Shown here one piece after another: positions 1,447-35,443 of a stretch of DNA of 35,930 nt. The first letter of the stretch is position 1; the number at the start of each line of letters is the position of its first letter. The DNA lies in the IMG/VR virus record IMGVR_UViG_2711768046_000005; one strand, given 5' to 3'. A program made the position numbers and the translations under genes. Under the pieces are notes generated by a model that searched no databases, was not told the origin of the DNA, and worked only from the letters and a program-made list of their open reading frames with translations. This DNA comes from a virus (Duplodnaviria; Heunggongvirae; Uroviricota; Caudoviricetes).

Positions 1447-1533
1447 GCTGAAAAACATAACCCATAAAATGCTAGCTGTACCAGGAACCACCTCCTTAGC
1501 CTGTGTAATCTCCCTTACACGGGCTTATTTTTT
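1447..1533 (+). ncRNA. cyaR: CyaR (RyeE) Hfq-dependent sRNA, 87 nt
   Basis: The sequence gctgaaaaacataacccataaaatgctagctgtaccaggaaccacctccttagcctgtgtaatctcccttacacgggcttatttttt matches remembered CyaR. A terminator hairpin cctgtgtaa/ttacacggg is followed by a U-run. Confidence 0.85.
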
Positions 1534-1534
1534 A
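1507..1534. repeat. Attachment-site core, ogr-side junction (aatctcccttacacgggcttatttttta)
   Basis: The 28-bp sequence is identical to 35416-35443. It contains the reverse complement of the remembered 27-bp P2 core AAAAAATAAGCCCGTGTAAGGGAGATT. It overlaps the CyaR terminator. Confidence 0.9.
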
Positions 1535-1573
1535 CGCGTAATTCAATGAAATAAAAGGATTTATTTCTGGTCA

Positions 1574-1592
1574 CGTCCACACATTGACCACA
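1574..1592. promoter_or_regulatory. Putative Int arm-type binding repeats (cGTCCACA / TGaCCACA, 11-bp spacing), ogr-side arm
   Basis: There are two direct octamers at 1574-1581 and 1585-1592. They resemble the perfect TGTCCACA pair at 35309-35327 on the int-side arm. P2 Int is known to bind direct repeats in both arms. Confidence 0.5.
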
Positions 1593-1597
1593 TCGAC

Positions 1598-1622
1598 AAA
1601 AAAGCCCCTCGACTGAGGGGCT
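1598..1622 (-). terminator. Rho-independent terminator downstream of ogr (usable in both directions)
   Basis: The stem is agcccctc (1603-1610) / gaggggct (1615-1622) with loop gact. It has a 6-nt U-run on the - strand (A-run 1598-1603) and tttctgttt on the + strand. Confidence 0.8.
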
Positions 1623-1634
1623 TTCTGTTTGTAA

Positions 1635-1853
1635 TTACATCCACATAATTTGCTGCCCTGACGGTAACGGGTGCGGCCTTACGGCGTGGACTTCTCCCGG
1701 CTTCACGATGTATCTCTGTACCGACTCATAGGTGATGAACGTGGCGCTGCAATTCACGTTCTGGCACTGGTGATAACGCTCTTTTGTCGTGTCAGTGATA
1801 TAGCGGCTTGTACGCGCATGTGCGGCATGCTGGCATAAAGGACAATGAAACAT
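1635..1853 (-). CDS. ogr: Ogr, zinc-finger late-gene transcription activator (72 aa)
   Basis: MFHCPLCQHAAHARTSRYITDTTKERYHQCQNVNCSATF... is recognised as P2 Ogr. The start was trimmed to Met22 of the 93-aa ORF to give the 72-aa P2 length. Confidence 0.9.
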   Translation of the reverse strand: MFHCPLCQHAAHARTSRYITDTTKERYHQCQNVNCSATFITYESVQRYIVKPGEVHAVRPHPLPSGQQIMWM

Positions 1854-1934
1854 CGCGAGCACCTCTTCCGGTTTTGTTGATGGTGCCATTTTAGTTAATT
1901 TATCCTTATAAAACAAACAGATAAAATAAAAACA

Positions 1935-3098
1935 TCACTCATCATCTTCTGTTTCGTACTCCACATCAGAAAGCCTGACCTCAAGCTCTAAGGACGTCGT
2001 GAAGCCGCTATTATTCAGAAAATGTGTCACCTTAGTGATTGTCCAGTCCTGCTCGTCTATGACGCGCTTAAAGCCTGACACTTTGACCGGTATTTCCGTG
2101 TAAATATCTGCCCGACCGGTAGCCAGGCTGATGGAGAACTCCGCCACGCCCCGTTGCAGCTTATCCCACTTCGCCTGAGCGGCGCGCATGGCCTGCGCTT
2201 TCGTGGCATATACCGTGGTCAGGGCAAAAACGTTGTCAGCCTCACCGGCCATGTATTCACCTTCGCGCGCTTCCGGTACTTTTGGCGCTTTCTTCTGCGT
2301 GACTGGTTTCGCTTTCGGGTGCTCCAGTGCGCGCAGGTGTTTCTCTTTCTTTTTGCGTTTCAGTTTTACCTTCTGCTTTTGCGGCTTCGGGTCTTTGGTG
2401 TGAAGCCACTTTGCCGTTACGCCGGTATAGGCTCCACGGTCAGCAATCGCAAAATGATGACGGTCACCGTCGCTGCGGGTGATGGTGATCTGCGGGATTT
2501 TTTTACCGCTGGCCGTCACCCCATGCCCCGCTTTGAGAAACAGCAGTTTTCCCATTTTTACCGACACCTCACCGCCGTTGCGTTCAGCAAGACGGGTCAG
2601 GAATTTCACATCGAACTCCTGCGACTGGTCGATGTGCGGGATTTTAATTCCGGCCAGTGACGGAGCGACACTGGCTTCCAGCCTGTTACGGGAGGCGATC
2701 GCCTCAACAATCGCACCGAGCGTGGTGTCATGCCAGGAGCCTTCACGGCGGGAATTGAGCGTCCCGCGAAAATCTGCACTCCGGGCGCGGATGGTAACCA
2801 CATCCGGCGCGCCCCGGTGTTCAACCTCATCAACGGTAAATTTCCCTTTGCATACCAGGGCAAAACCTTTCCAGCCGATATACACCGTCAGGACAGCGCC
2901 ACGAACCGGCAGCCCGACCTGCCCGTCGGCATCGTTCAGTTCAATATCAAGCTGGTCAGCCTCAAAGCCCCGGTTATCCGTCAGGGTCATACTCATCAGA
3001 CGGTCGCTGATATTGCCGGTAATATCCCTGCTGTCGAGCATCAGCATGTAATCCGGCGTCAGCGTACTGCCTGCATCAAATGTCAGTGCATCCAGCAT
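1935..3098 (-). CDS. D: Tail protein D (387 aa)
   Basis: The length and synteny are identical to P2 gpD, and the Lys-rich internal segment is typical. The start overlaps the U stop (TAATG). Confidence 0.9.
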   Translation of the reverse strand: MLDALTFDAGSTLTPDYMLMLDSRDITGNISDRLMSMTLTDNRGFEADQLDIELNDADGQVGLPVRGAVLTVYIGWKGFALVCKGKFTVDEVEHRGAPDVVTIRARSADFRGTLNSRREGSWHDTTLGAIVEAIASRNRLEASVAPSLAGIKIPHIDQSQEFDVKFLTRLAERNGGEVSVKMGKLLFLKAGHGVTASGKKIPQITITRSDGDRHHFAIADRGAYTGVTAKWLHTKDPKPQKQKVKLKRKKKEKHLRALEHPKAKPVTQKKAPKVPEAREGEYMAGEADNVFALTTVYATKAQAMRAAQAKWDKLQRGVAEFSISLATGRADIYTEIPVKVSGFKRVIDEQDWTITKVTHFLNNSGFTTSLELEVRLSDVEYETEDDE

Positions 3099-3577
3099 TA
3101 TCCCGCCCCCGTCATATCCGTGAATTTAGTCGCCATACTGCCAGCCTTACCGATGAGCGATTCCGCCTGTTTACCGATATCGCCATAAAGCGCGGCCAGT
3201 GATTCATCAACGCGGGTGAGCGACAGCGTAAAATCAATTTTCCGGGGTGTGCCGTCTGCAAAGAAAATACTCCCTGTTTCACTCACCCTGCTGATGACAT
3301 ACATGCCGTAAATCATGCCAGTGCCATCCAGCAACGGCCACGCCCGGCCTTCCTCTGCCATCAGCCTGAGCGTGGTCATCGTCAGCTTTCCGCCGGTCAG
3401 TTCGGGATAAAGCACACCGGCAAGCGTCATGTTTTCCTCACCCACACCGAGAAACTGATAGGCATCCCGTTTACCAATACGGGAATTTGACGGCCAGCGA
3501 TAATCCGATTCACGTTGCATGGTCTGGTGCGGCAGCGTCTGGCGCATAAAAACAAACATCCCTAACGCGAGCATCAT
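3098..3577 (-). CDS. U: Tail protein U (159 aa)
   Basis: P2 gpU length and position between T and D. Confidence 0.9.
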   Translation of the reverse strand: MMLALGMFVFMRQTLPHQTMQRESDYRWPSNSRIGKRDAYQFLGVGEENMTLAGVLYPELTGGKLTMTTLRLMAEEGRAWPLLDGTGMIYGMYVISRVSETGSIFFADGTPRKIDFTLSLTRVDESLAALYGDIGKQAESLIGKAGSMATKFTDMTGAG

Positions 3578-3591
3578 TTTTCGTCACCTCC

Positions 3592-6039
3592 TTAACCGTC
3601 ATGCATCATGCTGGCACGGGCGCGCGCACGTTTATCCCGCTCGTATTTTTCGAGCGCATCCTGTAACTGGCGGTCGAGCTGTGTTCCCGGTGCATTACCA
3701 CCCGGCAGGCTGATGTGATATTCGTTTTTACTCTGGTCTACATACGAGCGGCCAGCCGGTGCCGTGACCGGCTGGTAAGCCTGATAGCCTGCATAAGAGC
3801 TGGTCGCCGGAATATAACCACCTGTGCCATACGTGGCGGCATGAGTTCTGGCGGCAGTCTGGTCAAGTGCGTCAGACTCTTTGTTGATGACGCCGAGTTT
3901 TTCCAGTACCCAGTCAATACCGCTGCGCAGTTTGTTGAACGCATTAAGCGGCAGCATCAGCGCGTCAGCCAGTGCCTGCCCGAACATGACGCCCGTGTCA
4001 CGGCAACGGTTCAGGGTGTCCTGGGTGGCTTTGACCGGGGCAATCAGGTTTTTAAACCACTGCCACGCGGCCTGTAACTTTTCGCCCAGCCAGTCAAACA
4101 CCGGTTTCAGTGGCGAGAACAGCTCCCCCACCGGCGCAAATGCTGCTTTCAGCCCTTCAACCACACCACCAAAGAATGCGCTGACAGGCTCCCAGTATTT
4201 ACGGATAAGCAACGCCCCGGCGACAATGGCAGCCACCACAGCCACAACCGGCCAGCTAATAGCCCCGATGGCGGTCATAACAGCACTGCCAACCGTCGTG
4301 AAGATTGCCCCCATTGCGCCTGCTGCCGCGATGATGGCATTGATGCCGGTGATAACCGGCCAGGCTACAAGACCAATTGCACCGATGATGCCAATCAGCG
4401 CCAGCGCGCCACCGGCAATGAGGCCAATGGTTGACGCCAGTGATTTGTTTTTCTTGATCCAGCCGTCGAGTTTTAACACATACTTTGTGGCCGTCTGCGT
4501 GAGATTACGCAGTGCGCCTTCCTGCTGGTCAAACAGGTCAGTCCCCACCGCCTCATAAGCAGACTGAAACTCCTTAAAGTCACCGCCGAGGTTATCCTGC
4601 ATGATATTTACCAGCTCGGCGGTCTTCCCGTCTGAGGCTTTAAACGCAGCGGTCAGTTTGTCCAGCTTTCCGGTTGAGGCGGCAGTCATCAGCACGGCGG
4701 CGGCTGAGCTGGCTTCCTCCCCGAAAATGGTTTTCATGTATTCAGCCTGCTGGGCAGTACCGAGCCGGTTTTTCTCAAAACTGGCCTGCATTTCTTTCAG
4801 AATGGTAAATACTGGTCGGGTGTTTCCCTTACTGTCTGAGGTTTTCACGCCAAGCTCTTTGAGTGCATCCCATGCTTTTCCCGTCGGTGCCTGCAGGCGA
4901 CTTAACACGGCACGGCTTCCCGTCCCCGCCATTGAGCCTGTGATTTTTGCATCATGCAGCGCTCCGACCATTGCGGCGGTTTCTTCAATGCTGACACCGG
5001 CATTTTTTGCCACAGGTGCAGCATAGGTCAGCGCATCGCTCATACCGTCAAAATCGGCGGCGGTTTTGTTCATCGTCATGGAGAGAACATCCCCGATATG
5101 AGCGACCTTATCGTTTGAAAGCTGAAAGGCGGATTTCATCCCCATCAGCAGGGCAGCGTTTTCTTCCATCGTGCGACGGTTCGCCAGCGCCATATTCAGC
5201 GTGACCGGCGTTGCCGCCTGAATGGCATCAACATCCCCACCGGCTTTCGCAATAATAATCTGCGCACCGGCTGCATCATCTGCCGAGGCGGCGGTATTGT
5301 CGCCGAGCTGGCGCGCCTGTTTGCGTAGTGCAGCCATTTCGGCGGAGTCTTTTGCCACTCCGAGCACGGCCTGCAATTCTGAGTTTTTCTGCGCAAACTC
5401 ATAACCGGGCATCAGCAGCTTAACTCCGGCCATCGTTCCCGCCGCCGCAATCCCCACACCGGCAGCGCCCACCGAGGCCATATTTCCGGCCAGTTCCTTG
5501 CCTGCCTGATAACGCTGTTTGACTGCGTTAAGTTTTGCCTGTTGCGCACTGACACGCGCCAGCGCGTCGCGCTGACGGTTAAGCTGTGCGGTGGTTTCAC
5601 TGATACGGTTTTTCAGTCCCTGCTCATCATGTGCAAGATTGCGGGTATTAATTCCCACAGCGGCCAGTTCCCGTTGCTGGCGTTTAACGGAATCCGTCAG
5701 GTGGTTACATTTCGCCTGTAAGTCCTCCGCCGCACGCTTTGCGGATTCCAGCACTTTCGCCTGAGCACGGGTCGGACGTTCGGTGTTTTTAAACTGTGTG
5801 GCAAGGGCTTCGGCTTCCTGCCGTGCCTTTTCAAGTGCATGACCAGTCACGGCAAGCTGTGCGCTGGTCTTGCGAAATCCCTCAATACGGGATGCGTGAC
5901 CGTTCAGCTCGCGCAGTGATTTTTGTGTTTCCCGGATATCCCCCGACAGCGACTTACTCGCTGTGCGGATGGATTTAAACGGGCGGGATGCCTGGTCAAC
6001 AGCCCTGAGCAATACCTGTAATTTTACATTGTTACTCAT
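3592..6039 (-). CDS. T: Tail tape-measure protein T (815 aa)
   Basis: P2 gpT length. The N-terminus is coiled-coil rich and there is a central hydrophobic Gly/Ala-rich segment. It lies downstream of E/E'. Confidence 0.9.
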   Translation of the reverse strand: MSNNVKLQVLLRAVDQASRPFKSIRTASKSLSGDIRETQKSLRELNGHASRIEGFRKTSAQLAVTGHALEKARQEAEALATQFKNTERPTRAQAKVLESAKRAAEDLQAKCNHLTDSVKRQQRELAAVGINTRNLAHDEQGLKNRISETTAQLNRQRDALARVSAQQAKLNAVKQRYQAGKELAGNMASVGAAGVGIAAAGTMAGVKLLMPGYEFAQKNSELQAVLGVAKDSAEMAALRKQARQLGDNTAASADDAAGAQIIIAKAGGDVDAIQAATPVTLNMALANRRTMEENAALLMGMKSAFQLSNDKVAHIGDVLSMTMNKTAADFDGMSDALTYAAPVAKNAGVSIEETAAMVGALHDAKITGSMAGTGSRAVLSRLQAPTGKAWDALKELGVKTSDSKGNTRPVFTILKEMQASFEKNRLGTAQQAEYMKTIFGEEASSAAAVLMTAASTGKLDKLTAAFKASDGKTAELVNIMQDNLGGDFKEFQSAYEAVGTDLFDQQEGALRNLTQTATKYVLKLDGWIKKNKSLASTIGLIAGGALALIGIIGAIGLVAWPVITGINAIIAAAGAMGAIFTTVGSAVMTAIGAISWPVVAVVAAIVAGALLIRKYWEPVSAFFGGVVEGLKAAFAPVGELFSPLKPVFDWLGEKLQAAWQWFKNLIAPVKATQDTLNRCRDTGVMFGQALADALMLPLNAFNKLRSGIDWVLEKLGVINKESDALDQTAARTHAATYGTGGYIPATSSYAGYQAYQPVTAPAGRSYVDQSKNEYHISLPGGNAPGTQLDRQLQDALEKYERDKRARARASMMHDG

Positions 6040-6459
6040 TCGTGTTTCCGCTTCGCCGGAGCGCCTTTTCGCGCCATGTGATGAGTTCGGTCAGGCTCAT
6101 GGGATACAGTTCTGATGGCGGCCAGTGAAATATCACTGCCACATCCGCCATCAGGTCATCGACCGAGAGATTTTTCGGAAACGTCACTGCACCGAGTTCG
6201 GCGACAAAAAACCGACCACCTTACCGGCCAGCGCCACAAGGTCAGGCAGTTCCAGCGCAGCGACTTCCTGCTCGGTCAGCATCGGTGCCGTCATGCGCGG
6301 CAGCACCTTAATCAGTGCATCGACTTCGGAGTTCGCGACCGCTGCCAGACTGACACCGCGCAGCGTCCCGGCATTGGGTTTCATCAGCGTGACCTGTTCG
6401 ATAACCTGCTCACCACGTTTGACCGGATTGTCCAGGGTAATGACATTTTCTTTGTTCAT
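6032..6459 (-). CDS. E': Tail assembly chaperone E+E' produced by programmed -1 frameshift (142 aa)
   Basis: Hand translation after a -1 slip on G GTT TTT TG gives ...FVAELGAVTFPKNLSVDDLMADVAVIFHWPPSELYPMSLTELITWREKALRRSGNTNE*. The stop TAA at 6032-6034 overlaps the T start (ATGAGTAA). The 428 nt plus 1 give 143 codons. Confidence 0.8.
6184..6459 (-). CDS. E: Tail assembly chaperone E (91 aa)
   Basis: P2 gpE length and position. The ORF ends ...KVVGFLSPNSVQ. Confidence 0.9.
   Translation of the reverse strand: MNKENVITLDNPVKRGEQVIEQVTLMKPNAGTLRGVSLAAVANSEVDALIKVLPRMTAPMLTEQEVAALELPDLVALAGKVVGFLSPNSVQ
6205..6211 (-). other. Slippery heptamer TTTTTTG for E/E' -1 frameshift
   Basis: The + strand reads caaaaaa at 6205-6211. 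This is the conserved tail-chaperone frameshift signal of P2 and of the lambda G/GT class. Confidence 0.8.
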
Positions 6460-6515
6460 GGTTTTCTCACTTCTGAATCGGGGTTAACCGGTCAGCCAGG
6501 CTGACCGGATGAAAA

Positions 6516-7034
6516 TCACAGGCCGATATTGCGGCGGTGTTGCTCCAGCCGGTCGACGCCGTTCACCTTCTCAATCATGTTGATGGTGTCGATTTCGACC
6601 AGCTCCTTACCGTCCATCGTCAGCCGGAAATAGGTGCAGACCACGGAGATTTTCGACTCGGTGTCTTCTCCCTGTTTGCCCTCGCCGGTGTCGATTTCTT
6701 TCTGACGTCCACGCATGACCACCTCGACGGCCACCGTTTCGCCGGTATCGTCGCGCTGGTAAGAGCCTGCAAAACGAATCGGTACGGCATCCACACCGGT
6801 TGCGGCGTAAAGCTCCCAGATAACCGAATCCGGGAAGCCACCGAGCGACCACTCCATTGACAGCGCATCGTCATCAAGGCCGAGGTCTACCGGTGCGCTG
6901 CCGTTCATCCCCGCACCGCGATAGTTTTCGAGCTTACGGGTCAGTTTTGGTAGCGTGACGGACTTCGCGACGCCCTGATAGCTGTAGCCGTTCAGAAAGA
7001 CGTTCATTAACTTGAGTTTGCGCGGCATTGCCAT
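6516..7034 (-). CDS. FII: Tail tube protein FII (172 aa)
   Basis: P2 FII length and synteny. Confidence 0.9.
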   Translation of the reverse strand: MAMPRKLKLMNVFLNGYSYQGVAKSVTLPKLTRKLENYRGAGMNGSAPVDLGLDDDALSMEWSLGGFPDSVIWELYAATGVDAVPIRFAGSYQRDDTGETVAVEVVMRGRQKEIDTGEGKQGEDTESKISVVCTYFRLTMDGKELVEIDTINMIEKVNGVDRLEQHRRNIGL

Positions 7035-7046
7035 CGGTCAGGCTCC

Positions 7047-8237
7047 TTAATTGCTGTTAACCGAGGTGACCAGATTTGCCAGGTATTTATCGGTAATACG
7101 CTGGCGCAGGGTCAGGTTTTCAAGAGGAGGCACCGGTGTATAGTCGTAGTCGATATACAGTTTTCCGGCCTTGAGGGTTTCCGCATCGTTGGATTCTTCG
7201 CTGAACCAGCAGGTCGCATCCACGATATAGCCGTTTGTTTTCAGCTCACGGAATTTGGCATTGATGCCGTCAACGATGTCGCGAATCAGCGTTGCGGTGA
7301 TGGGCTTGTCCACCGCCCACATGTGCGCCTCAGCCATCGTGTCGGCCATCACCTGCGCGGTGCGGGTGTAGTTTTCAAAGAGGAACAGCGGGTCATCAGA
7401 GCAGGTACGGTTACCCCAGAAGCGGAAACCGTCGCGGCGAATCAGCGTTGTGACGCCTGCCTCGTTCAGCAGGTCAGCATCGGTGCCGGACTCCTGCAAA
7501 TCCCAGAATACAGATGCGCTGATGCCGGTAACACCGTTTACCCCGACGTTGGACAGCGTTTTATGCCAGCCCTGCTCCTGGTCGATTTTAGCACGCAGCC
7601 CCAGCGCACGGGCGGTGGCATACGCGGTGGCGGTAGTGCTGCTGACCGTATCCCATGCGAGGAAATCCGGCCAGATGACCATCAGCTCACGCTGGCTGAA
7701 ATTCTGGCGGTAGGCTTTCACCTCGGAAATGGTTTTACAGCCCCATGCGCTGATATACCCGAAAGCGCGCAGCTTCTGACAGACTGATGCCAGTGCAACA
7801 GCCACCTCTTTGGTGTCCAGTCCCGGCACGCCGAGAATACGCGGTTTAACACCGGTTACCGACTCTGCCGCCAGCAGGGCTTTCAGTCCGGTATACTGAC
7901 CGTTTTCGTCAGTGGTGCCGATGATATTGGAAACGGTCTGCGCGAGTTTCGTTTCTTCGTCGTCGCCGGTGCCGTCTTCAACACGCACGACAACGGTGAC
8001 CGGTTTTGACTGGTCAGCGATGGCCTGCAACGATGCCGCCAGCGTGCCTTTTTTACCGGCCTTTGCAATTGCGCTCTGCACATTGGTAATCAGCACCGGT
8101 TTATTGAGGGGGAAGGTTTCCGCATCCGCATCGCTGGCCGTGCAGACCATGCCGACAATGGCAGTGGATACAGTGGAAATGACGCGGGTGCCGTCGTTAA
8201 TCTCCAGCACCTGCACGCCGTGATGATAGTCACTCAT
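7047..8237 (-). CDS. FI: Tail sheath protein FI (396 aa)
   Basis: P2 FI length and synteny. Confidence 0.9.
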   Translation of the reverse strand: MSDYHHGVQVLEINDGTRVISTVSTAIVGMVCTASDADAETFPLNKPVLITNVQSAIAKAGKKGTLAASLQAIADQSKPVTVVVRVEDGTGDDEETKLAQTVSNIIGTTDENGQYTGLKALLAAESVTGVKPRILGVPGLDTKEVAVALASVCQKLRAFGYISAWGCKTISEVKAYRQNFSQRELMVIWPDFLAWDTVSSTTATAYATARALGLRAKIDQEQGWHKTLSNVGVNGVTGISASVFWDLQESGTDADLLNEAGVTTLIRRDGFRFWGNRTCSDDPLFLFENYTRTAQVMADTMAEAHMWAVDKPITATLIRDIVDGINAKFRELKTNGYIVDATCWFSEESNDAETLKAGKLYIDYDYTPVPPLENLTLRQRITDKYLANLVTSVNSN

Positions 8238-8309
8238 CCGTTTAACTCCGTGGTTAATGGGTGCAACTATTTTCTGTTGGGCAGTGCATGAGACGCTATT
8301 TGACCTGAC

Positions 8310-8327
8310 TGGTCAGTGGATGAAACA
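8310..8327 (-). promoter_or_regulatory. Putative Ogr-responsive dyad of late promoter P_F (TGT-N12-CCA on - strand)
   Basis: This is an imperfect version of the P2 late-promoter dyad TGT-N12-ACA. Its centre at 8318.5 is about 56 bp upstream of a plausible start downstream of a GAAAAT -10-like hexamer (8274-8269). Confidence 0.35.
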
Positions 8328-8334
8328 ACAGATT

Positions 8335-8361
8335 AAAGAAAAGGCGGGCAATTCGCCCGCC
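8335..8361 (-). terminator. Rho-independent terminator (end of upstream late H-G transcription unit / cargo boundary)
   Basis: The stem is ggcgggc (8343-8349) / gcccgcc (8355-8361), followed on the - strand by ttttcttt. Confidence 0.7.
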
Positions 8362-8421
8362 TGTCCTGATTTGAACTCACTCATTTTCCGACTGACAATT
8401 TACATAGCCCAAAAGTTATCA

Positions 8422-8457
8422 AATCTGACAGTCTGCTTTGAGTGAGAAGCAGACATT
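8422..8457. repeat. 36-bp inverted-repeat element, copy A (left border of FRG cargo island)
   Basis: The sequence is aatctgacagtctgctttgagtgagaagcagacatt. Its reverse complement matches 10229-10264 at 11/11 plus 15/16 outer positions, with a divergent 9-nt centre. It can itself fold (gtctgctt/aagcagac). Confidence 0.8.
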
Positions 8458-10086: not shown

Positions 10087-10228
10087 AGGGATAAACTAAA
10101 GGAAACGAAAACTAAGACTGCGCAGTCTTCAGGTGGAAGTACTCATCGGGAACGGTTTCAGGGGCAAAAACTGGAAGCTCCAATGGCCTTGAGCTGCTCC
10201 CTATAAATTAACATATCTCAATGTTATC

Positions 10229-10264
10229 AATGTCTGCTTTTGGCACAGAGCGGACTGTCAGATT
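10229..10264. repeat. 36-bp inverted-repeat element, copy B (right border of FRG cargo island)
   Basis: The sequence aatgtctgcttttggcacagagcggactgtcagatt is the inverted partner of 8422-8457. Confidence 0.8.
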
Positions 10265-10316
10265 AGGCTTTACTCTGTGCCATAGATATGTAAGCTCACA
10301 CCAGAGCTCATGCAAC

Positions 10317-10844: not shown

Positions 10845-10845
10845 A

Positions 10846-20688: not shown

Positions 20689-20691
20689 CGG

Positions 20692-25654: not shown

Positions 25655-25659
25655 ACATC

Positions 25660-25822: not shown

Positions 25823-25841
25823 GTGCTTTCCCCACCTCGCC
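25823..25841. other. cos cohesive-end sequence (19 nt)
   Basis: The sequence is gtgctttccccacctcgcc. It is the reverse complement of remembered P2 cos GGCGAGGCGGGGAAAGCAC with one substitution. The flanking sequence toward Q also matches the remembered P2 left end. Confidence 0.8.
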
Positions 25842-25884
25842 CGCCCGCTTCATGGGTCGGTTTTAATGCAGTTGTATTTAATGG

Positions 25885-25915
25885 AAAAAGCCCTCCAGGA
25901 CTGGAGGGCTTTTCT
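25885..25915. terminator. Bidirectional rho-independent terminator between cos and the kinase operon
   Basis: A 9-bp stem agccctcca (25889-25897) / tggagggct (25902-25910) with loop ggac is flanked by aaaaa and tttct. It lies 60 nt downstream of the operon's last stop on the - strand. Confidence 0.85.
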
Positions 25916-25969
25916 ATTAGAGTTCGTAAAATGCTCATGCAAATTCACGCGTTATGCTGCAAAAAACAA

Positions 25970-28098: not shown

Positions 28099-29257
28099 CT
28101 TTATCTCCTTTAGTGGAGTTTTTCTCAGAGAATGAAATATCTAACTGTGAAATATTATCTAACTTATCATTATTGTTAGCTTCGATAACATTCCTTCCCT
28201 CATCACTCTTTATATTACTATTTTTTTTCTTTGTACGTGATTTCCTTTTCGATACATTTTTTTTGTTAGAAATTTCATTACTGCATTCTAACTCAGTAAC
28301 TTTTCTATCAATAACATTTTCAACCGTAGCTGAGTTAGGTATATCTAACGGCGCAGGTTGCACGCTAATTACTTTCATCTCACCAAAAGGATCCCATAAA
28401 TTAATTACATCCCCAGATGATACATCCAAAGCACTTAGGATGTTCGAAATCTCAACTACCGCAATCGACGCATTATCAAATCCACCAAACCAACTAGCTA
28501 GATCTATAACTCTTTTAGCGAACACTCCAGTATTATTGGAGTGAGCATATAATTTTCTCAAATTATTACTGTCAATGGTATGAGCACCATCTGAAGTTAA
28601 TGCAACCACCCCAGGTACGAGCCGAATATCGTGAAAATGTATCTCAAGAACACCATCAAGACCTATAAACTGTACTAACTCGCCACCTAACCTAGAATCA
28701 ATAACACCTGAGTCACTACCAAGATGCTCATTATATTTCTTTGCCAATACAGCTAATGTATCATCCTCACTAATTTGTTTTATGTGTTCAGCATTAATGG
28801 AATATATGCGACTATCCCCGACATTTATTGCTGTAATGTTATCGGAGTCATCTACAGCTAAGGCAGATAACGTAGCCCCACCGTTCCCATTATATACTTT
28901 CAAAACCGATTCATTTGCTTTTAAAACGGCGATTTCAAGACATTGTCTAATTGGCAAGCCTGAGTGTTTAATTATCTCGGTAAAAAAAGATGATACGGTC
29001 AATGAAGCAGCATTCGCTCCCCCTTCCATCCCCCCCATACCATCTGCTAAAGCGATGACAATCATGTCCTTATTCTTACTAAAAGGACGAAATTTTAATA
29101 CAGCTACCCGGTCTTGGTTCTCTTTCCTAACTAAACCTATGTCTGTAGCAATAGCTGCAGGTAGCATAGATACTCTTCGTACAGATGAAGAGATATTTTT
29201 TCTATGCAGCCAAGCGTGTATCTGTTCATGAAGGATCTCGTAAGAGTCTCGACTCAC
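28091..29257 (-). CDS. PP2C (PPM)-family Ser/Thr phosphatase with Lys/Asn-rich C-terminal tail (388 aa)
   Basis: A GTG start is preceded by a strong SD GAGGAGG. PPM motifs are RKENQD (D49), ALADGMGG (D72), GGATLSAL, VGDSRIY, LTSDG (D223) and DNASIAVV (D261). The tail at aa 325-388 is low complexity. Confidence 0.85.
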   Translation of the reverse strand: MSRDSYEILHEQIHAWLHRKNISSSVRRVSMLPAAIATDIGLVRKENQDRVAVLKFRPFSKNKDMIVIALADGMGGMEGGANAASLTVSSFFTEIIKHSGLPIRQCLEIAVLKANESVLKVYNGNGGATLSALAVDDSDNITAINVGDSRIYSINAEHIKQISEDDTLAVLAKKYNEHLGSDSGVIDSRLGGELVQFIGLDGVLEIHFHDIRLVPGVVALTSDGAHTIDSNNLRKLYAHSNNTGVFAKRVIDLASWFGGFDNASIAVVEISNILSALDVSSGDVINLWDPFGEMKVISVQPAPLDIPNSATVENVIDRKVTELECSNEISNKKNVSKRKSRTKKKNSNIKSDEGRNVIEANNNDKLDNISQLDISFSEKNSTKGDKDD

Positions 29258-29287
29258 AGCGCCTCCTCAAGCAAGCATTTCTCCGAA

Positions 29288-29315
29288 GCTATAGATTACA
29301 AAACACTAACGGCAA
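29288..29315 (-). promoter_or_regulatory. Putative sigma70 promoter of the phosphatase-kinase operon (TTGCCG-N16-TATAGC)
   Basis: On the - strand the -35 TTGCCG lies at 29315-29310 and the -10 TATAGC at 29293-29288, about 30 nt upstream of the GTG start. This rests on sequence pattern only. Confidence 0.3.
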
Positions 29316-29478
29316 TTCCTAGCATTACCCACTCAATTCCATTAGAAAACTGACGTAGTACAGTTAGTTGAATATTATTGTGATGACGAATGCCAATCCT
29401 CTGATCACGCTGATTACAATATCACAACTCCCCGCTCTCCGATTCACAGTATTCAGTGATACAGAATATCACCTCGTA

Positions 29479-31764
29479 CTATATACATCGTTGATTTATT
29501 GGAAGCCCCGGCCACTCATCAACAACCGGATATGTAAATTTTTTCTCGCCATATGCCACCCTCGCACCTCGTGCTAGTACATCCAGCTCCCACCGTTCCG
29601 GCGTGATGCCATGCTGTGCGAGGTCAAACCGGATACGCGATATCTGGTCGCGCTGCGATTTAGTCAGCCTTGCCGATGGCGCAATTTCATTAGGTTTTAA
29701 CGGGCCTCCGTTTCTCTGCTGACGATTTGGTGTTCTCAGGCCGTGTTTTAATGCGCCCCTGAGCGCCCTCACTACATCCGGGTCATTCCATTCGATAACA
29801 CCTTCATCAACCAGATTAAGTACTGCTGCGGCGTGCTCAGAAGGTGTGGGAGCCGGTAACGAAGTATCACCACCAGTGAGCTTTCCACAGTTATTGACAG
29901 GACTCCGAGGCGCGACGATGCCGCTTTTTAAAGTCAAAGGCTCAACGACCGGAACTTTCGGCACAATGCGCCAGTCCGTCGTTCTGGTGATATGAATATG
30001 ACGCGCGCCGAGATGCGGCGCGTAAATGCCGACCACTCTCTCGACTTCTTCCTCGTACTCGTTAACTTCATCCGACGGGCTACGGGCGACTCTGACAGTC
30101 TGACAATCGCGCGGGACATTTGCCCCACCCTGCGCGCTGATATACAACGCAAAATCACCACTGTCTGCGGCGGCGCGTGCAGCCTCGACGCGCTCGTCAA
30201 ACTCATCAGCAATGCTGACGCCGCGCGGCAATTTGCGTAGTTCACGGTAAGCCCCCATTGTCGGCAGGCCAACCGTTTTAAATTGCGGGATGCGCCACGT
30301 TGACGCCCATGCGGTAACAGCCGCTGCAGTGTCTTTCAGCGGCCTGCCGGTGTCGTTATCGAGCTGACCATCCAGTGCATAGCCGTCGATGTTTTTTGAA
30401 ATGTATTTCGCGATATATCCCGCAGCACCGCCCCGGTTAAGGTGTTTTGCCTGAAAACGGTTTCGCGCGGCTCCTCTTTCGTCGCCATCCTCTTTGAGCG
30501 CATAGCGACGCATGATTTCGATAATCTGGTTACGCTGGCGTGAATTACAAAAAAGCATCATATGCCAGTGCGGCGTTCCGTCGTGGTGTGGCTCGACGAC
30601 ACGCAAACCGTAGACCTGTAAATCATTATCCTTGAATGCCGTGCGCATCAGGCTCCAGATACGGCAGAGATAACGCTGCGCATCCTTTGGATTAAATGCC
30701 TCATCGTTCCAGCCGTGATTAAGCTGCACGGTTTTACTTTCGCCTTTTCCTACCTGACGTGTCGGGTGATACTTTGACGGCGCGGTCAGCGTGATAAACA
30801 TCCCCACATCACCCTCTGCAGCGGCGTAACGCTCAATACCGGCAATGGTGTTCATCAGCTCCATCCGGCGAATTTCAGGATTAGAAATACTGCCCATCAC
30901 CTTACTGATAAGGTCGATGCGCTCGCCGGTTTCCCTGTTTTCAAGGTCACACGATTTAAGAAATTCCAGATTTGCCTGGCGGCGCGCACGCACATCACGA
31001 ATGGCGTGTTTACTGGCATAAGGAGAACGGTCTTTATTGACCTCCCCGACAGCTATCAGTAACGCTTCATGCCAGCGCATACGCTGGCCTTTAAGCTGAT
31101 GAGTCCACCACTCATCGTTAAACAGACGGGCAATGGCAGAATATGCCTGCCTCGTGGTCATCTGTCCTTTACGGTATTTTTTCCAGTAGAGCGGGGAAAT
31201 ATTGAAAGCACGTGCAGCGCCAGCAACATGACCATACAGGTGAGCCTGCGCCTCATCCGTAAACAGCGATTCTTTTTCACCATGCGCATCAACCCATGCA
31301 TCGCAGAGTTCCTCATACATCATGAAAAGCTGCGATGAGATACGGGCGGCAAACTTTTTCAGCTCCTTGTCATTCATTCCCGGCAGGCGCGCATAGTGGT
31401 CACGCTCTGCCAGAAACAGCAACGACGCGTCGGTGTTCATTTCATGGCGCTGATTCACACGCTCAATGCGCGGCCATAAACGACGCTGAAAAGTAGATGT
31501 GAGGAAATAAAACCCGTGCACCGGGCTTTTATTGCGCCGGATGTAGTCATAGCGTGAAGTAAACAGCGAGCGCAAAAAGTAAGGCAGGCGGTTAATCGTG
31601 GATAAAACACCTTGCACCTGACGCATCTCGTCACGTGTAAGAGGTCTTTCGCGCCCGACAGCCTCGCGTGGCGCGTTCCATGCATAAGCACCGGTAAATG
31701 CCTTACCGGTGCCTGCGGTAAATGCTGACGGAGGGACAAAACACCCGGAGGCTTTAACGGCCAT
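29479..31764 (-). CDS. A: Replication initiation (rolling-circle nickase) protein A (761 aa)
   Basis: MAVKASGCFVPPSAF...GAYAWNAPREAVGRERPLTRDEMRQ... is recognised as P2 gpA. The start was set at Met15 of the 775-aa ORF to give the remembered 761 aa. The longer start at 31806 is not excluded. Confidence 0.85.
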   Translation of the reverse strand: MAVKASGCFVPPSAFTAGTGKAFTGAYAWNAPREAVGRERPLTRDEMRQVQGVLSTINRLPYFLRSLFTSRYDYIRRNKSPVHGFYFLTSTFQRRLWPRIERVNQRHEMNTDASLLFLAERDHYARLPGMNDKELKKFAARISSQLFMMYEELCDAWVDAHGEKESLFTDEAQAHLYGHVAGAARAFNISPLYWKKYRKGQMTTRQAYSAIARLFNDEWWTHQLKGQRMRWHEALLIAVGEVNKDRSPYASKHAIRDVRARRQANLEFLKSCDLENRETGERIDLISKVMGSISNPEIRRMELMNTIAGIERYAAAEGDVGMFITLTAPSKYHPTRQVGKGESKTVQLNHGWNDEAFNPKDAQRYLCRIWSLMRTAFKDNDLQVYGLRVVEPHHDGTPHWHMMLFCNSRQRNQIIEIMRRYALKEDGDERGAARNRFQAKHLNRGGAAGYIAKYISKNIDGYALDGQLDNDTGRPLKDTAAAVTAWASTWRIPQFKTVGLPTMGAYRELRKLPRGVSIADEFDERVEAARAAADSGDFALYISAQGGANVPRDCQTVRVARSPSDEVNEYEEEVERVVGIYAPHLGARHIHITRTTDWRIVPKVPVVEPLTLKSGIVAPRSPVNNCGKLTGGDTSLPAPTPSEHAAAVLNLVDEGVIEWNDPDVVRALRGALKHGLRTPNRQQRNGGPLKPNEIAPSARLTKSQRDQISRIRFDLAQHGITPERWELDVLARGARVAYGEKKFTYPVVDEWPGLPINQRCI

Positions 31765-32029
31765 ATGAGCCAAAAGCCTCTGAACAACGCTTGCTGAGTT
31801 GCTCAACCTGCGCGTTTAAATCAGCAAAAGATTTTGCGCTTCCGGTCAGAATATCGTGATGCATCAGGCCGGAAACGAGCTGGCCTAATTTCGGGTAATA
31901 ACCAACCACCGCCAGCCATTCCTGACCGGCGTTTTTACCGCTTTCCGCTCTCTTTTTCTCGTGGAGAATAAACTGAAAGCTGTCACTGGTAACGACATAA
32001 CGTTCGCCAATTTCAATACGAATACTCAT
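31754..32029 (-). CDS. P2 orf83-position early protein (91 aa)
   Basis: Its position immediately upstream of A and its coupling to the neighbouring genes support the call. Function unknown. Confidence 0.7.
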   Translation of the reverse strand: MSIRIEIGERYVVTSDSFQFILHEKKRAESGKNAGQEWLAVVGYYPKLGQLVSGLMHHDILTGSAKSFADLNAQVEQLSKRCSEAFGSYGR

Positions 32030-32250
32030 GCCGTTCTCCGGTAATGTTTGTTTTTTGCTTCAAAGACTGACTGACAGGAAACACAACGCGTGGCTGACGG
32101 ATAAGCCGCACGACGGGCAGCAGGTATTGGCGCGTCACACTCTTCGCAAACCAGCGCAGAAACACCGCAATGTTTTACCCTTGCCGCGTTAATCTGGCGC
32201 TCCAGTAATTCAGCCTGTTGTTCCTGAATAAAATCCACGTTGTCCGGCAT
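32026..32250 (-). CDS. DksA/TraR-type C4 zinc-finger protein (P2 orf82 position, 74 aa)
   Basis: It has a CEECDAPIP...RCVSCQ four-cysteine motif and a 4-nt overlap with the downstream gene. Confidence 0.75.
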   Translation of the reverse strand: MPDNVDFIQEQQAELLERQINAARVKHCGVSALVCEECDAPIPAARRAAYPSATRCVSCQSVFEAKNKHYRRTA

Positions 32251-32555
32251 TACCAGCTCCTTTTGTCGTTCAGCTTCTTAAATTCATCAGCGCAATAACT
32301 GGCGAGTTCTGTCGTTAATTTTGTCAGTTCATCCACTGAGGAAATTTGCTTGTGGAATACAGCGCGTTTAACAAGTAAATTGACCACATCAGACAGGAGG
32401 TTTAATTCACTCTGATAAATCGCGATAACAGATTCAGTTATTTCGCGCTTCTCTTTATCAATACCAAGTTGAATAAGAGACAAATCACCATTTTTCATAA
32501 CGGCGATTTTTAAGGCGTTATTCAGTAATACAACCGAACGAGAACAGGACATCAA
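32250..32555 (-). CDS. P2 orf81-position early protein (101 aa)
   Basis: Synteny and overlapping stop/start with its neighbours. Confidence 0.65.
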
Positions 32556-32776
32556 AGCACCTCCCCGCGAGACAATCCGATATTGTGAAATTTTTCCGAC
32601 TCCTGACTGAGCAGCTCAACTATCTCCACGCGGGATAACTCCGCCTTTGTGATGTGGCGAATCATGGCGTCAAGATGAGAAGAAAAGCGCGTCGCAGCGT
32701 CGGCCTGTGCTTCGGTTCTGGCCTGTTGCAGCAGTAATGCGTATTTACCGCACTGATTTTCAGAAACTGTATGCAT
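32552..32776 (-). CDS. P2 orf80-position early protein (74 aa)
   Basis: Synteny and a 4-nt overlap with the downstream gene. Confidence 0.65.
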
Positions 32777-32839
32777 GACTTTCTCCAGGCAAAAAGAAGC
32801 CCCGCACGATTAAGTGCGTTAAAAACTCTGGTTAATTAC

Positions 32840-33340
32840 TTAATGCAGATATTGCTCTGGTTTTACCGACGTCAGAATTGTCGGTGCATACTCAAACAGG
32901 CTGAATAATTCACGTAATGCACGGAATAAAGCATCACGCCAGTAACATGACTCTTCATTAATTCGCCAGTATGGCTGGTTAAATTCTTTTTCAGTCAATC
33001 CGGCATGCATAAATAAAGTACGACGCTGACTGACTGTTAAAAAACTAATATATGCATACTCACTTGCACCGACCTGACGACGTTTTGAGAATGCCCCACG
33101 CAATTCATCAATTGCACATACCAGTCGTTCACGTTCGACGTCGTTCATTTCTTCAAAACGCATCGTTGCGTGACGCTGTTTTAACTGCGCATGAAAGCAA
33201 ACTGTTAGCCGTTCGCGCTCCATCATCTGATTATAATAATCACATGTATCCTGCCAGCGAGGAACGGCAAGATGCTTACCAATTATCCGGCGCATAGCTG
33301 CTGGCTGTTTTTCAACGAGATTGAGCGTCATCACTGTCAT
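32840..33340 (-). CDS. B: Replication protein B (helicase loader-like, 166 aa)
   Basis: MTVMTLNLVEKQPAAMRRIIGKHLAVPRWQDTCDYYNQMMERE... is recognised as P2 gpB. The ATG at 33340 forms an ATGA overlap with the orf78 stop and has GGAGGG 7 nt upstream. Confidence 0.85.
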   Translation of the reverse strand: MTVMTLNLVEKQPAAMRRIIGKHLAVPRWQDTCDYYNQMMERERLTVCFHAQLKQRHATMRFEEMNDVERERLVCAIDELRGAFSKRRQVGASEYAYISFLTVSQRRTLFMHAGLTEKEFNQPYWRINEESCYWRDALFRALRELFSLFEYAPTILTSVKPEQYLH

Positions 33341-33507
33341 TTCCATACCCTCCGGCTTTTCAGAAAGGTCAGAGCCTTTTTTAACGGACTCTGTTTTTTG
33401 GTGCGGATAATGATTCCCTTACGCCCCTTACCGTGGGTGATGGTGAAGTCAATCGCCCTGGGGCTTTCGTTACGCAGTAACTGAGCAATACAACGAGGCT
33501 CATTCAT
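33337..33507 (-). CDS. P2 orf78-position small early protein (56 aa)
   Basis: The start is at Met9 with SD AAGGAG. It sits between cox and B, as in P2. Confidence 0.65.
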   Translation of the reverse strand: MNEPRCIAQLLRNESPRAIDFTITHGKGRKGIIIRTKKQSPLKKALTFLKSRRVWK

Positions 33508-33517
33508 ACGGTTCTCC

Positions 33518-33793
33518 TTAACGTGGTTCACCGAGACCTAACCACATCAACCAGCCGTCACGAATCTCTTTAGGTCGGCTTTCATAAGCCAGTTTTAGTC
33601 CGTTATTCCATGCCGGAAGGTATACCCAATATTCACCTGCACGACCTGAAGCTGATTGTGGATCGGTCATATCAATTACAGGCAGCTTTCCTTTATCGAT
33701 CATCCGACGAACCGCTCCTGTCGATTTTCCTATTAGTTTTGCGAACTCCTGATAAGGAATCGCATCAGTCATGAGTGTTACTTGCTTGCTCAT
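33518..33793 (-). CDS. cox: Cox: excisionase / repressor of Pc (91 aa)
   Basis: MSKQVTLMTDAIPYQEFAKLIGKSTGAVRRMIDKGKLPVIDM... is recognised as P2 Cox. The length is identical. Confidence 0.9.
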   Translation of the reverse strand: MSKQVTLMTDAIPYQEFAKLIGKSTGAVRRMIDKGKLPVIDMTDPQSASGRAGEYWVYLPAWNNGLKLAYESRPKEIRDGWLMWLGLGEPR

Positions 33794-33830
33794 GTCGTCC
33801 TCTAGCCCTCATGAATTGCGTTTAATGTCT

Positions 33831-33836
33831 TATAAT
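33831..33836 (+). promoter_or_regulatory. Pc (lysogenic promoter) -10 hexamer TATAAT
   Basis: A perfect -10 lies 72 nt upstream of the C start with no good -35. It faces Pe, as in the convergent P2 switch. Confidence 0.5.
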
Positions 33837-33874
33837 GCCTTTTAGTGCCCACATCCAAGCACTAAACAATCTAC

Positions 33875-33914
33875 ATCTAAACTAAATACTATTGAGATCT
33901 AAACACCATGTCAA
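33875..33914 (-). promoter_or_regulatory. Pe (early promoter) with C-repressor operator half-sites O1/O2
   Basis: On the - strand the promoter reads TTGACA (33914-33909), 17 bp, TAGTAT (33891-33886). Two direct ATCTAAAC octamers at 33875-33882 and 33897-33904 (22-bp spacing) flank the -10, matching the known P2 operator geometry. Confidence 0.7.
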
Positions 33915-34207
33915 ACACGATAAGCGAGAAGATAGTCTTAATGCGAAAATCAGAGTATTTGAGCAGACAACAACTTGCTGATTTAACAGGGGTTCCGTAT
34001 GGCACGCTGAGTTACTATGAAAGTGGTCGTTCAACACCTCCAACAGATGTCATGATGAACATCCTGCAGACCCCACAATTCACCAAATACACTTTATGGT
34101 TCATGACCAATCAGATCGCTCCTGAGTCCGGGCAAATTGCGCCCGCTCTCGCACACTTTGGGCAAAACGAAACAACGTCGCCCCACTCCGGTCAAAAGAC
34201 TGGTTAA
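33908..34207 (+). CDS. C: Immunity repressor C (99 aa)
   Basis: MSNTISEKIVLMRKSEYLSRQQLADLTGVPYGTLSYYESGRSTPP... is recognised as P2 C, and an HTH is present. Confidence 0.9.
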   Translation: MSNTISEKIVLMRKSEYLSRQQLADLTGVPYGTLSYYESGRSTPPTDVMMNILQTPQFTKYTLWFMTNQIAPESGQIAPALAHFGQNETTSPHSGQKTG

Positions 34208-34322
34208 CAATTCATCGTGAATATATTCATCACAAGTGCCTACTATTGGTGGCTAAATTTCAGCCACCACGAAAAAAGCGATTAGTAGTCGCAAAAAAAC
34301 ACACCACTCGGAGGGTTTTCTG

Positions 34323-35336
34323 ATGGCAATCAAAAAACTCGATGATGGTCGATATGAAGTGGACATCCGCCCTACTGGACGTAATGGAAAACGCATCCGT
34401 AGGAAGTTTGATAAGAAAAGCGAAGCTGTCGCTTTCGAGAAATACACGTTGTACAACCACCACAATAAAGAATGGCTATCAAAACCAACAGACAAGCGAC
34501 GTCTGTCGGAGCTGACACAGATCTGGTGGGATTTAAAGGGTAAACACGAAGAGCATGGGAAATCTAATCTTGGAAAAATTGAAATCTTCACAAAAATAAC
34601 GAATGACCCATGCGCATTTCAAATTACGAAATCGCTTATCAGCCAGTACTGCGCCACCCGAAGAAGTCAGGGTATTAAACCTTCGAGTATCAATCGTGAT
34701 TTAACATGTATTAGCGGCATGTTTACAGCCCTGATTGAAGCGGAGTTATTCTTTGGTGAGCACCCTATCAGAGGGACAAAAAGGCTTAAGGAGGAAAAAC
34801 CAGACACAGGCTATCTCACGCAGGAAGAAATTGCCTTACTGCTTGCTGCTCTTGACGGCGACAACAAAAAGATTGCGATTCTTTGCCTGAGTACTGGAGC
34901 ACGTTGGGGAGAAGCAGCTCGTTTGAAAGCAGAAAATATCATCCATAACCGCGTCACGTTTGTTAAAACGAAAACAAACAAACCACGCACCGTCCCGATC
35001 TCAGAGGCTGTTGCCAAAATGATCGCGGATAACAAACGAGGTTTTTTATTCCCTGATGCTGATTACCCTCGCTTCAGACGAACAATGAAAGCAATAAAAC
35101 CGGATTTGCCAATGGGGCAAGCCACACATGCACTAAGGCACAGCTTTGCCACTCATTTCATGATTAATGGAGGAAGTATTATCACGCTACAACGGATACT
35201 AGGTCACACGCGGATTGAGCAAACTATGGTTTACGCTCATTTTGCGCCAGAGTACCTTCAGGACGCCATTTCTCTTAATCCGCTAAGAGGTGGTACTGAG
35301 GCCGAGAGTGTCCACACAGTGTCCACAGTAGAGTAA
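34323..35336 (+). CDS. int: Tyrosine integrase (337 aa)
   Basis: P2 Int length and sequence. Catalytic signature: ARWGE (R), HALRHSF (H-x-x-R), GHTRIEQTMVYAH (H...Y). Confidence 0.9.
   Translation: MAIKKLDDGRYEVDIRPTGRNGKRIRRKFDKKSEAVAFEKYTLYNHHNKEWLSKPTDKRRLSELTQIWWDLKGKHEEHGKSNLGKIEIFTKITNDPCAFQITKSLISQYCATRRSQGIKPSSINRDLTCISGMFTALIEAELFFGEHPIRGTKRLKEEKPDTGYLTQEEIALLLAALDGDNKKIAILCLSTGARWGEAARLKAENIIHNRVTFVKTKTNKPRTVPISEAVAKMIADNKRGFLFPDADYPRFRRTMKAIKPDLPMGQATHALRHSFATHFMINGGSIITLQRILGHTRIEQTMVYAHFAPEYLQDAISLNPLRGGTEAESVHTVSTVE
35309..35327. promoter_or_regulatory. Int arm-type binding repeats (2 x TGTCCACA, 11-bp spacing), int-side arm
   Basis: Perfect direct octamers lie at 35309-35316 and 35320-35327 inside the int 3' end. 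They mirror the pair at 1574-1592. Confidence 0.55.
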
Positions 35337-35415
35337 CGTTTAAGGGCTTTCAGTGGTAATTTATGCCGCTCAAACCCGCATTGTACCGTTGAAAGCCCCT
35401 ACTGGTGACACCCTA

Positions 35416-35443
35416 AATCTCCCTTACACGGGCTTATTTTTTA
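35416..35443. repeat. Attachment-site core, int-side junction
   Basis: Identical 28 bp to 1507-1534. Confidence 0.9.

Follow-up and report, generated by a model that had tools for sequence, protein, structure and literature searches.

An apparently intact P2-like prophage of Escherichia coli S1-ZIM-01-A with unrelated AT-rich cassettes in its three accessory hotspots

The variable loci of P2-like phages are known as reservoirs of antiviral systems (PMC9122126). Their contents are rapidly swapped, the defence genes being very weakly linked to the core genes, and 10% of the P2 elements with complete systems hold several systems in different hotspots (PMC13586616). Two of these loci, the Z/fun and old/tin hotspots, have also been rediscovered automatically in a set of 1008 P2-like phages (bioRxiv 10.1101/2024.10.15.618418). 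Here we describe a member of this group in the IMG/VR record IMGVR_UViG_2711768046_000005, a stretch of 35,930 nucleotides that is referred to below as the window. Positions 1507–35443 of the window represent an apparently intact Peduovirus (P2-like) prophage of Escherichia coli S1-ZIM-01-A, integrated between yegQ and yegR, in which three accessory loci carry an FRG-domain gene, a gene for a 247-residue protein of an unannotated family and a phosphatase-kinase-kinase operon of the KKP type. The published Peduovirus hotspots (Rousset et al. 2022, PMC9122126; Moura de Sousa et al. 2026, PMC13586616; Egorov et al. 2024) have the same backbone and the same three insertion points, namely the gpA/portal-cos region, the Z/fun tail gene and the S/V junction downstream of the head and lysis genes, and they likewise show swapping, occasional multiple systems and AT-rich cargo; the only difference lies in the particular trio of cassettes. 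The account favoured here, to which we assign a probability of about 0.8, is that of an intact-type P2-like architecture with swapped cassettes that have assorted independently.

All of the window segments tested were 100% identical to the chromosome of E. coli S1-ZIM-01-A (NZ_CP145671.1). Megablast against deposited phages identified the element as a Peduovirus, with approximately 97% identity to P2 across about 80% of the length. Breakpoints were defined by pairwise blastn of the window against P2 (NC_001895) and read against the P2 annotation. Four collinear P2 blocks with 96–98% identity, together about 26 kb, were found in addition to a weaker match over G and a short block at cosR. The blocks, the intervening slots with their content of guanine and cytosine (GC) as a fraction, and the attachment and cohesive-end sites are as follows.

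1507–1534: attL core, a 28-bp direct repeat AATCTCCCTTACACGGGCTTATTTTTTA adjoining yegQ (1–1362) and followed by the P arm and ogr; an exact repeat, at which the homology to P2 attP begins (1507)
1507–8453: P2 block with the attP core, P arm, ogr, D, U, T, E, FII and FI; 96–98% identity
8454–10223: slot 1, the Z/fun hotspot between FI and G; gap in P2 homology, 1770 bp foreign, GC 0.375, replacing fun(Z)
10224–10890: P2 block with G; 88% identity
11596–15446: P2 block with the N-terminus of H, I, J, W and V; 96–98% identity
15447–16475: slot 2, the orf30 hotspot between V and S; gap in P2 homology, 1029 bp foreign, GC 0.347, replacing orf30
16476–25841: P2 block with S, R, the lysis genes, X, L, M, N, O, P, Q and cosL; 96–98% identity
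25823–25841: cos, the 19-nt cohesive-end sequence at the junction of P2 coordinates 1 and 33593, located by the overlap of the cosL and cosR blast blocks
25823–25870: P2 block with cosR
25871–29506: slot 3, the old/tin hotspot between cos and A; gap in P2 homology, 3636 bp foreign, GC 0.378
29507–35501: P2 block with A, orf83 to orf80, B, orf78, cox, C, int and att; 96–98% identity
35416–35443: attR core, the second exact copy of the 28-bp AATCTCCCTTACACGGGCTTATTTTTTA, downstream of int

Gene-for-gene synteny with P2 extends over the structural, lysis, replication and integration modules, in agreement with the RefSeq annotation. The open reading frames have the lengths of the P2 genes throughout, and therefore the prophage looks intact. 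It is present in the integrated form, with ogr adjoining attL, int adjoining attR and the att core duplicated; the boundaries 1507 and 35443 used in the preliminary description of this DNA are exactly those of the two copies of the 28-bp core.

The alignment of the whole prophage to P2 left three clean gaps at the accessory loci, with exact breakpoints. In slot 3 the foreign segment stands in for old, tin and orf91 as well as the final 28 nt of A. The GC content of the prophage backbone is 0.542, against 0.347–0.378 in the slots. However, the three cassettes of P2 itself are equally AT-rich (GC 0.33–0.35), and thus AT-richness belongs to the slots and not to the S1-ZIM-01-A prophage. The five cargo proteins were without a match among the P2 accessory proteins in blastp searches (best E = 0.28), and P2 fun, orf30, orf91, tin and old produced no tblastn match in the whole window at E < 0.7. 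The preliminary description had recognised a P2 backbone from gene lengths and sequence, and had proposed that three P2 accessory loci hold unrelated AT-rich cargo; both proposals are borne out by the collinear blocks, the matching gene lengths, the homology gaps, the base composition and the blank protein searches. Its presentation of the simultaneous replacement of all three loci as something unusual was overstated, as P2 is one arbitrary configuration among many. In a survey of 5426 complete E. coli genomes, the P/Q backbone was detected in 1763 genomes (2076 places) and the old-tin cassette of P2 in 17. P2 is therefore one rare configuration, and a ‘replacement relative to P2’ would be recorded for almost every member of the family. 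In the same survey the FRG cassette occurred in 44 genomes, the KKP cassette in 14 genomes in identical form and in four more as a 71%-identical variant, and the cassette of the 247-residue protein in six genomes, with another ten at about 80%.

Comparison with sister prophages shows that the three slots assort independently. Three prophages occupy the same yegQ/yegR site and carry the KKP cassette. Among them, that of S40 has an empty orf30 slot and other cargo at Z/fun, that of FY26 has a short G–FI gap with no annotated gene and a 75%-identical variant of the 247-residue gene, and that of S22EC combines Shedu with an orf30 of the P2 type (83% amino acid identity). The prophage of A3024 presents the opposite case: its FRG protein is identical, its late-gene proteins are the same and so is its 247-residue gene (slot DNA 99.8% identical); the differences lie in the cargo of slot 3 and in the A and C immunity genes. 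Slot 3 of A3024 (L014, 19541–21734) contains a hypothetical gene, a gene of the ComEC/Rec2 family with a metallo-beta-lactamase fold and another hypothetical gene. Among the matches listed, the source genome was alone in appearing in all three cassette searches at 99% identity or more. Cassettes at G/FI, S/V and cos/A would be acquired singly, by homologous recombination in the conserved phage genes flanking them. With the cassettes acquired one at a time, the trio would be the product of independent assortment and not a co-adapted set.

The cargo most closely related to a described system is that of slot 3. KKP modules comprise a PP2C phosphatase, PfpC, followed by PfkB, a kinase with a C-terminal FHA domain, and then PfkA, a kinase with a C-terminal cold-shock domain bearing a GFI/GFA motif (PMC11341870). 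More than 1200 KKP clusters are known, of which over 90% reside in temperate phages, including P2 and P4; clusters in P2 prophages are reported explicitly, and Phage_GPA and Phage_portal appear among the neighbours of KKP in the neighbourhood figure (PMC11341870). The two kinases together are toxic and the phosphatase neutralises them (PMC11341870). Four KKP modules of non-filamentous prophages, including that of E. coli 15EC039, confer protection on their hosts against T4 and T-odd phages, and the E. coli module is set off by T4 Gp59, which binds and inhibits the phosphatase (PMC11341870). In the window, slot 3 contains the following features.

28091–29257, minus strand: PfpC-like PP2C Ser/Thr phosphatase of 388 residues, the predicted antitoxin; PP2C_2 (PF13672) at 26.7 bits (cutoff 24), NCBIfam Stp1_PP2C at E = 1.5e-29
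27034–28098, minus strand: PfkB-like Ser/Thr kinase of 354 residues; Pkinase (PF00069) at E = 1.7e-42, 8-nt overlap with the pfpC-like gene
25970–27037, minus strand: PfkA-like Ser/Thr kinase of 355 residues; Pkinase (PF00069) at E = 4.7e-45, 4-nt overlap with the upstream kinase gene
25884–25910, minus strand: intrinsic-terminator-like hairpin, AGCCCTCCAG..CTGGAGGGCT and then TTTTT, 60 nt past the stop codon of the pfkA-like gene; read from the sequence and partly detected by the terminator scan

The three genes are translationally coupled and co-directional with gene A. The phosphatase gene starts with GTG, preceded by a GAGGAGG Shine-Dalgarno sequence, 221 bp downstream of the stop codon of A, and its product retains the metal-binding motifs of PP2C enzymes (DGMGG at residue 72, SDG at 222 and DNAS at 261). 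The PfkB-like kinase, for which more than 1100 full-length homologues were found, contains HRD at residue 125 and DFG at 145 and ends in a conserved domain of about 100 residues. The PfkA-like kinase has GGM at 22, HRD at 131, DFG at 154 and GFI at 306–308. The module thus resembles the KKP of Guo et al. (2024) in the order phosphatase-kinase-kinase, the coupling of the genes, the HRD and DFG motifs of both kinases, the GGM and GFI motifs of the last kinase, and the location, which is between the gpA and portal genes of a P2 prophage. MvaU, the host target of the Pseudomonas KKP, has no direct counterpart shown for the window module. Old and tin of P2 are transcribed in the direction opposite to that of the KKP genes and are unrelated to them in sequence and domains. 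More generally, the lysogenic-conversion genes old, tin and fun(Z) of P2 are found in the slots that this cargo takes up and share its predicted role, that of non-essential morons excluding other phages, while being unrelated to it in sequence and domains.

On these grounds slot 3 can be assigned to KKP with good, although not complete, confidence, and an anti-phage function of the module is probable. By analogy with the published family, the PP2C phosphatase would hold two interacting Ser/Thr kinases in check until a protein of an infecting phage, as Gp59 of T4 in the published E. coli case, inhibited it; the released kinases would then hyper-phosphorylate essential host proteins, leading to growth arrest and an aborted infection. 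The cassette DNA had no match among 50,697 deposited phage genomes. In E. coli NDM2 the KKP cassette is present on the chromosome and also on a 43-kb ‘plasmid’ record (NZ_CP083887.1), which may be an excised or episomal copy of a P2-like phage, or an assembly duplicate.

Slot 1 carries a single gene.

8752–10086, plus strand: FRG-domain protein of 444 residues; Pfam FRG (PF08867) at E = 2.8e-22 and 79.9 bits (cutoff 25), residues 193–282

The FRG domain has been placed in the ADP-ribosyltransferase superfamily by the Aravind group, who predicted it to be an antiviral effector of the NADase type (PMC9503650). The window protein matches the PADLOC candidate system PDC-S15 (PDLC04936) over residues 166–440 with E = 6.7e-99, and phrog_4962 over its full length; its RefSeq name is ‘FRG domain-containing protein’. 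It shares with the PDC-S15 candidates the FRG domain, the profile match and the organisation as a single-gene cassette in a phage hotspot, and differs from them by an additional N-terminal region of about 165 residues, in which no domain was annotated. The gene has the orientation of fun(Z) in P2, antisense to the late operons on either side, and its ATG is preceded by an AGGAG Shine-Dalgarno sequence at a distance of 7 nt. An anti-phage function of the FRG protein is marginally favoured. From the computational predictions, the N-terminal 165 residues would serve as a sensor, with the FRG domain depleting or modifying NAD+ upon infection. The exact protein occurs on at least 1000 public contigs. 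A protein with 97.5% amino acid identity is encoded by the non-P2 temperate phage Tritos (OV696610, 4001–5335), between replication genes and hokD, and a 44%-identical FRG homologue is located in the gpA–cos hotspot of Peduovirus P22H1 (320–1684). The cassette is thus mobile, both among phage families and from one hotspot to another.

The foreign segment of slot 2 includes a gene of an unannotated family together with regulatory elements of the flanking late genes.

15493–15510: TGT-N12-ACA box found by pattern search, upstream of V, inside the foreign segment and 20 nt upstream of the ATG of the cargo gene on the other strand
15530–16273, plus strand: 247-residue protein with an R126-N127-x-x-x-H131 motif, HEPN-like; in the orientation of orf30 in P2
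16305–16327, minus strand: terminator-like GC-rich hairpin with a T-run after S, at the end of the O operon; 10 pairs, of which 7 are GC, from the terminator scan

We take the TGT-N12-ACA box to represent the consensus pattern of the Ogr/delta late-activator site. The P2 homology resumes exactly at the start codon of V (15446). Since the segment holds both the promoter region of V (pV) and the terminator after S, the exchange spans the entire S–V intergenic region, and, as the whole pV region and the TGT-N12-ACA box lie in foreign DNA, each cassette seems to bring its own variant of the late promoter.

The 247-residue protein matched no model of Pfam (even at E ≤ 10), NCBIfam or PADLOC and no protein of the 50,697 deposited phage genomes, whereas it does match the prophage-derived phrog_12680. 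An exhaustive profile search recovered 331 relatives among 1.84 billion representatives clustered at 50% identity, and the exact protein is present on 169 public contigs. In an alignment of 80 of these relatives, whose identity to the window protein is 14–76%, three residues are invariant (N75, R126 and H131), R88 is nearly so, and N127 is conserved in at least 90%. R126 and H131 conform to the conserved Rx4-6H motif of HEPN proteins. The R-N-x-x-x-H motif is regarded as a signature of HEPN ribonucleases, so the label ‘HEPN-like’ is plausible for this protein, although unproven. The motif is also carried by the Abi2/AbiD/AbiF and AbiU-type families. One of the 80 relatives matched PF18736 (HEPN pEK499_p136) at E = 0.0057; no Pfam model of the HEPN clan matched the window protein, and Pfam and PADLOC scans of the 80 relatives and of 10 long fused relatives retrieved no consistent family. 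Profile searches with the family returned nothing from the PDB sequences, and from a set of 5.8 billion proteins only proteins devoid of Pfam domains. Some relatives (P0028, P0037, P0043, P0065, P0074, P0078 and P0143) are 600–720 residues long; in these the region shared with the window protein is N-terminal, and the C-terminal extension, of about 450 residues, lacks any Pfam domain.

An AlphaFold2 model computed from six sequences was poor, with a pLDDT (predicted local distance difference test) of 55; the rerun with the 80-sequence alignment, which was used here, reached a pLDDT of 95 and a predicted template modelling score of 0.90. It consists mostly of long helices, with a beta-hairpin following the helix that bears the motif. 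Foldseek searches of this model against PDB and BFVD gave nothing significant, the matches being indistinct from generic helical bundles. The protein thus differs from single-protein HEPN Abi ribonucleases and from SO_3166 (PDB 5yep) by the absence of a HEPN-clan Pfam match and by the beta-hairpin insert and long helices of the model. Of three distant relatives whose surroundings were examined, two adjoin restriction-modification or toxin-antitoxin genes, either a restriction-modification gene of the MmeI type or SocA_Panacea together with an Eco57I-type methyltransferase. For an anti-phage function of the 247-residue protein the odds are a little short of even. If it is a single-gene HEPN-like ribonuclease, as the motif suggests, it would use R126 and H131 to cleave RNA upon infection. 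The fuller proposal, that the protein represents an unnamed and widespread single-gene defence family, a divergent HEPN-type ribonuclease with an unusual beta-hairpin insert that aborts infection, is a tentative one.

Several results weigh against the account developed so far. With regard to KKP, the C-terminus of the PfkB-like kinase, in which an FHA domain is expected from the work of Guo et al. (2024), produced no FHA call in Pfam even at E ≤ 10, no precomputed FHA match among 120 homologues and no FHA protein in a profile search of the PDB sequences; the domain is thus not detectable by sequence. The C-terminal 66 residues of the PfkA-like kinase matched the cold-shock domain CSD (PF00313) at E = 0.002 and 18.4 bits, under the gathering score of 27. 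For the KKP assayed by experiment in 15EC039 (MCM8848563-65 in the supplement) no match to the clusters listed was obtained, and the likeness is one at the level of the family. No clear promoter was recognised in the 221-bp spacer between A and the pfpC-like gene, and the operon is co-directional with the repressed early operon. Matches to sigma-70-like promoters were not above the shuffled expectation in any of the three slots. For FRG/PDC-S15, the searched literature yielded no experimental validation of either anti-phage or NADase/ADP-ribosyltransferase activity.

The preliminary description had gone further than these data allow in some respects. It ascribed to each cassette an independence of strand or regulation, which is only partly right: the KKP operon runs with the early gene A, and the promoter matches stay at the level of chance in all three slots. 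Of the domains that it named, FRG and PP2C with two Ser/Thr kinases were recovered and HEPN-like is a reasonable term, but HEPN itself was not confirmed by Pfam or fold searches. Likewise, its count of three defence modules is well founded for KKP, which belongs to an experimentally validated defence family (PMC11341870), while FRG is a computational candidate and HEPN is unconfirmed. The hotspot hypothesis to which it hoped to contribute natural controls has already been established (PMC9122126, PMC13586616, bioRxiv 10.1101/2024.10.15.618418).

Different explanations of the trio can be weighed on this basis. The cargo might consist of strongly diverged orthologues of fun/Z, orf30, orf91, tin and old, in line with the position and orientation that the FRG and 247-residue genes share with fun(Z) and orf30, and with the length of the 247-residue protein, which is near that of Orf30 (261 residues). 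However, the domain content differs, FRG and PP2C with kinases standing against the ATPase-nuclease of OLD, and slot 2 of S22EC contains a true Orf30 orthologue (83% amino acid identity) that is unlike the 247-residue protein. This reading was rejected at the sequence level by the blastp and tblastn searches reported above, and its probability is negligible. The preliminary description invited tests for layered or synergistic protection. On a reading of this kind, the trio would be a co-selected defence set in which the cassettes travel together as the combination beats the sum of its parts. Three plausible defence genes or modules are indeed found in one 34-kb element, and about 10% of the P2 elements with complete systems have several of them across the hotspots (PMC13586616). 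Nevertheless, among the matches listed the full trio at 99% identity or more was restricted to the source genome, each cassette also occurs with other partners or next to empty slots in otherwise near-identical prophages, and the linkage of defence genes to core genes is reported to be very weak (PMC13586616). No evidence for the trio as a selected or synergistic unit was obtained from these comparisons, in which the slots assort independently, and we consider such a set very improbable.

A more serious alternative is that at least one of the cassettes is not primarily directed against phages. KKP could be a regulator of lysogeny and induction or an addiction module, and the FRG or 247-residue gene could be a host-fitness or virulence moron, or act in counter-defence. 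P2 hotspots are known to hold non-defence cargo as well, with partition systems and cytolethal distending toxin among the examples (PMC9122126), and both the 247-residue family and the N-terminal 165 residues of the FRG protein are devoid of annotated function. On the other hand, the protection against T4 and T-odd phages afforded by four KKP modules of non-filamentous prophages, including an E. coli one (PMC11341870), the listing of FRG as a PADLOC defence candidate, the restriction-modification and toxin-antitoxin genes adjoining relatives of the 247-residue protein, and the predominance of defence genes in the P2 hotspots in published surveys (PMC13586616) render this alternative rather unlikely. 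Independent assortment of swapped cassettes on an intact P2-like backbone remains the preferred explanation of the locus.

Exchanges relative to P2 are also seen outside the three slots.

10224–11596, minus strand: diverged tail-fibre module adjoining slot 1; by blastn, G is 88% identical to that of P2 and the receptor-binding C-terminus of H is almost devoid of a P2 match

The H protein has 724 residues in the window and 669 in P2, and for its C-terminal part the alignment over 11596–13020 was limited to two short matches, of 51 and 76 bp, both to other parts of P2 H. To judge from this divergence, 10224–11596 is a likely swap of a host-range module directly beside the Z/fun hotspot, where the swapping of receptor-binding proteins and tail fibres has been described (bioRxiv 10.1101/2024.10.15.618418). 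The immunity region (33771–34078), with the C repressor and the Pe and Pc promoters, is of the P2 type in this prophage and does not align with S40, FY26 and S22EC, which have a different C; it is a putative further point of exchange, separate from the three cargo slots.

The host flank beyond attR is alignable at 96% or more to the corresponding flank in S40, FY26 and S22EC. Immediately past attR, at 35444–35514, it contains a second P-arm-like copy that includes the Int arm-site sequence ATTGACCACATCGA at 35488, duplicating the copy at 1583, and a partial att core, AATCTCCCTT, follows it at 35505. This P-arm-like copy has the appearance of a scar left at yegQ/yegR by a former P2-like element.

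Taken as a whole, this arrangement exemplifies a phenomenon that is already well documented; it is ordinary, and normal for the P2 family. The hotspots of P2, their defence cargo, its fast and independent turnover and the presence of KKP in P2 prophages have already been published, and the locus carries little conceptual weight. Its practical value is that of a well-delimited example, with exact breakpoints and with natural controls: A3024 differs in slot 3 and in the early region (A and C), while S40, FY26 and S22EC have slot 3 in common with the window prophage and diverge from it in the other two slots. It also draws attention to two single-gene candidates, the FRG protein and the 247-residue protein, both of them common in E. 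coli. Real potential for discovery lies only in the unannotated family of the 247-residue protein in the S/V slot. If this is indeed a defence family, the S/V locus of P2 would become a third productive place in which to mine new defence systems.

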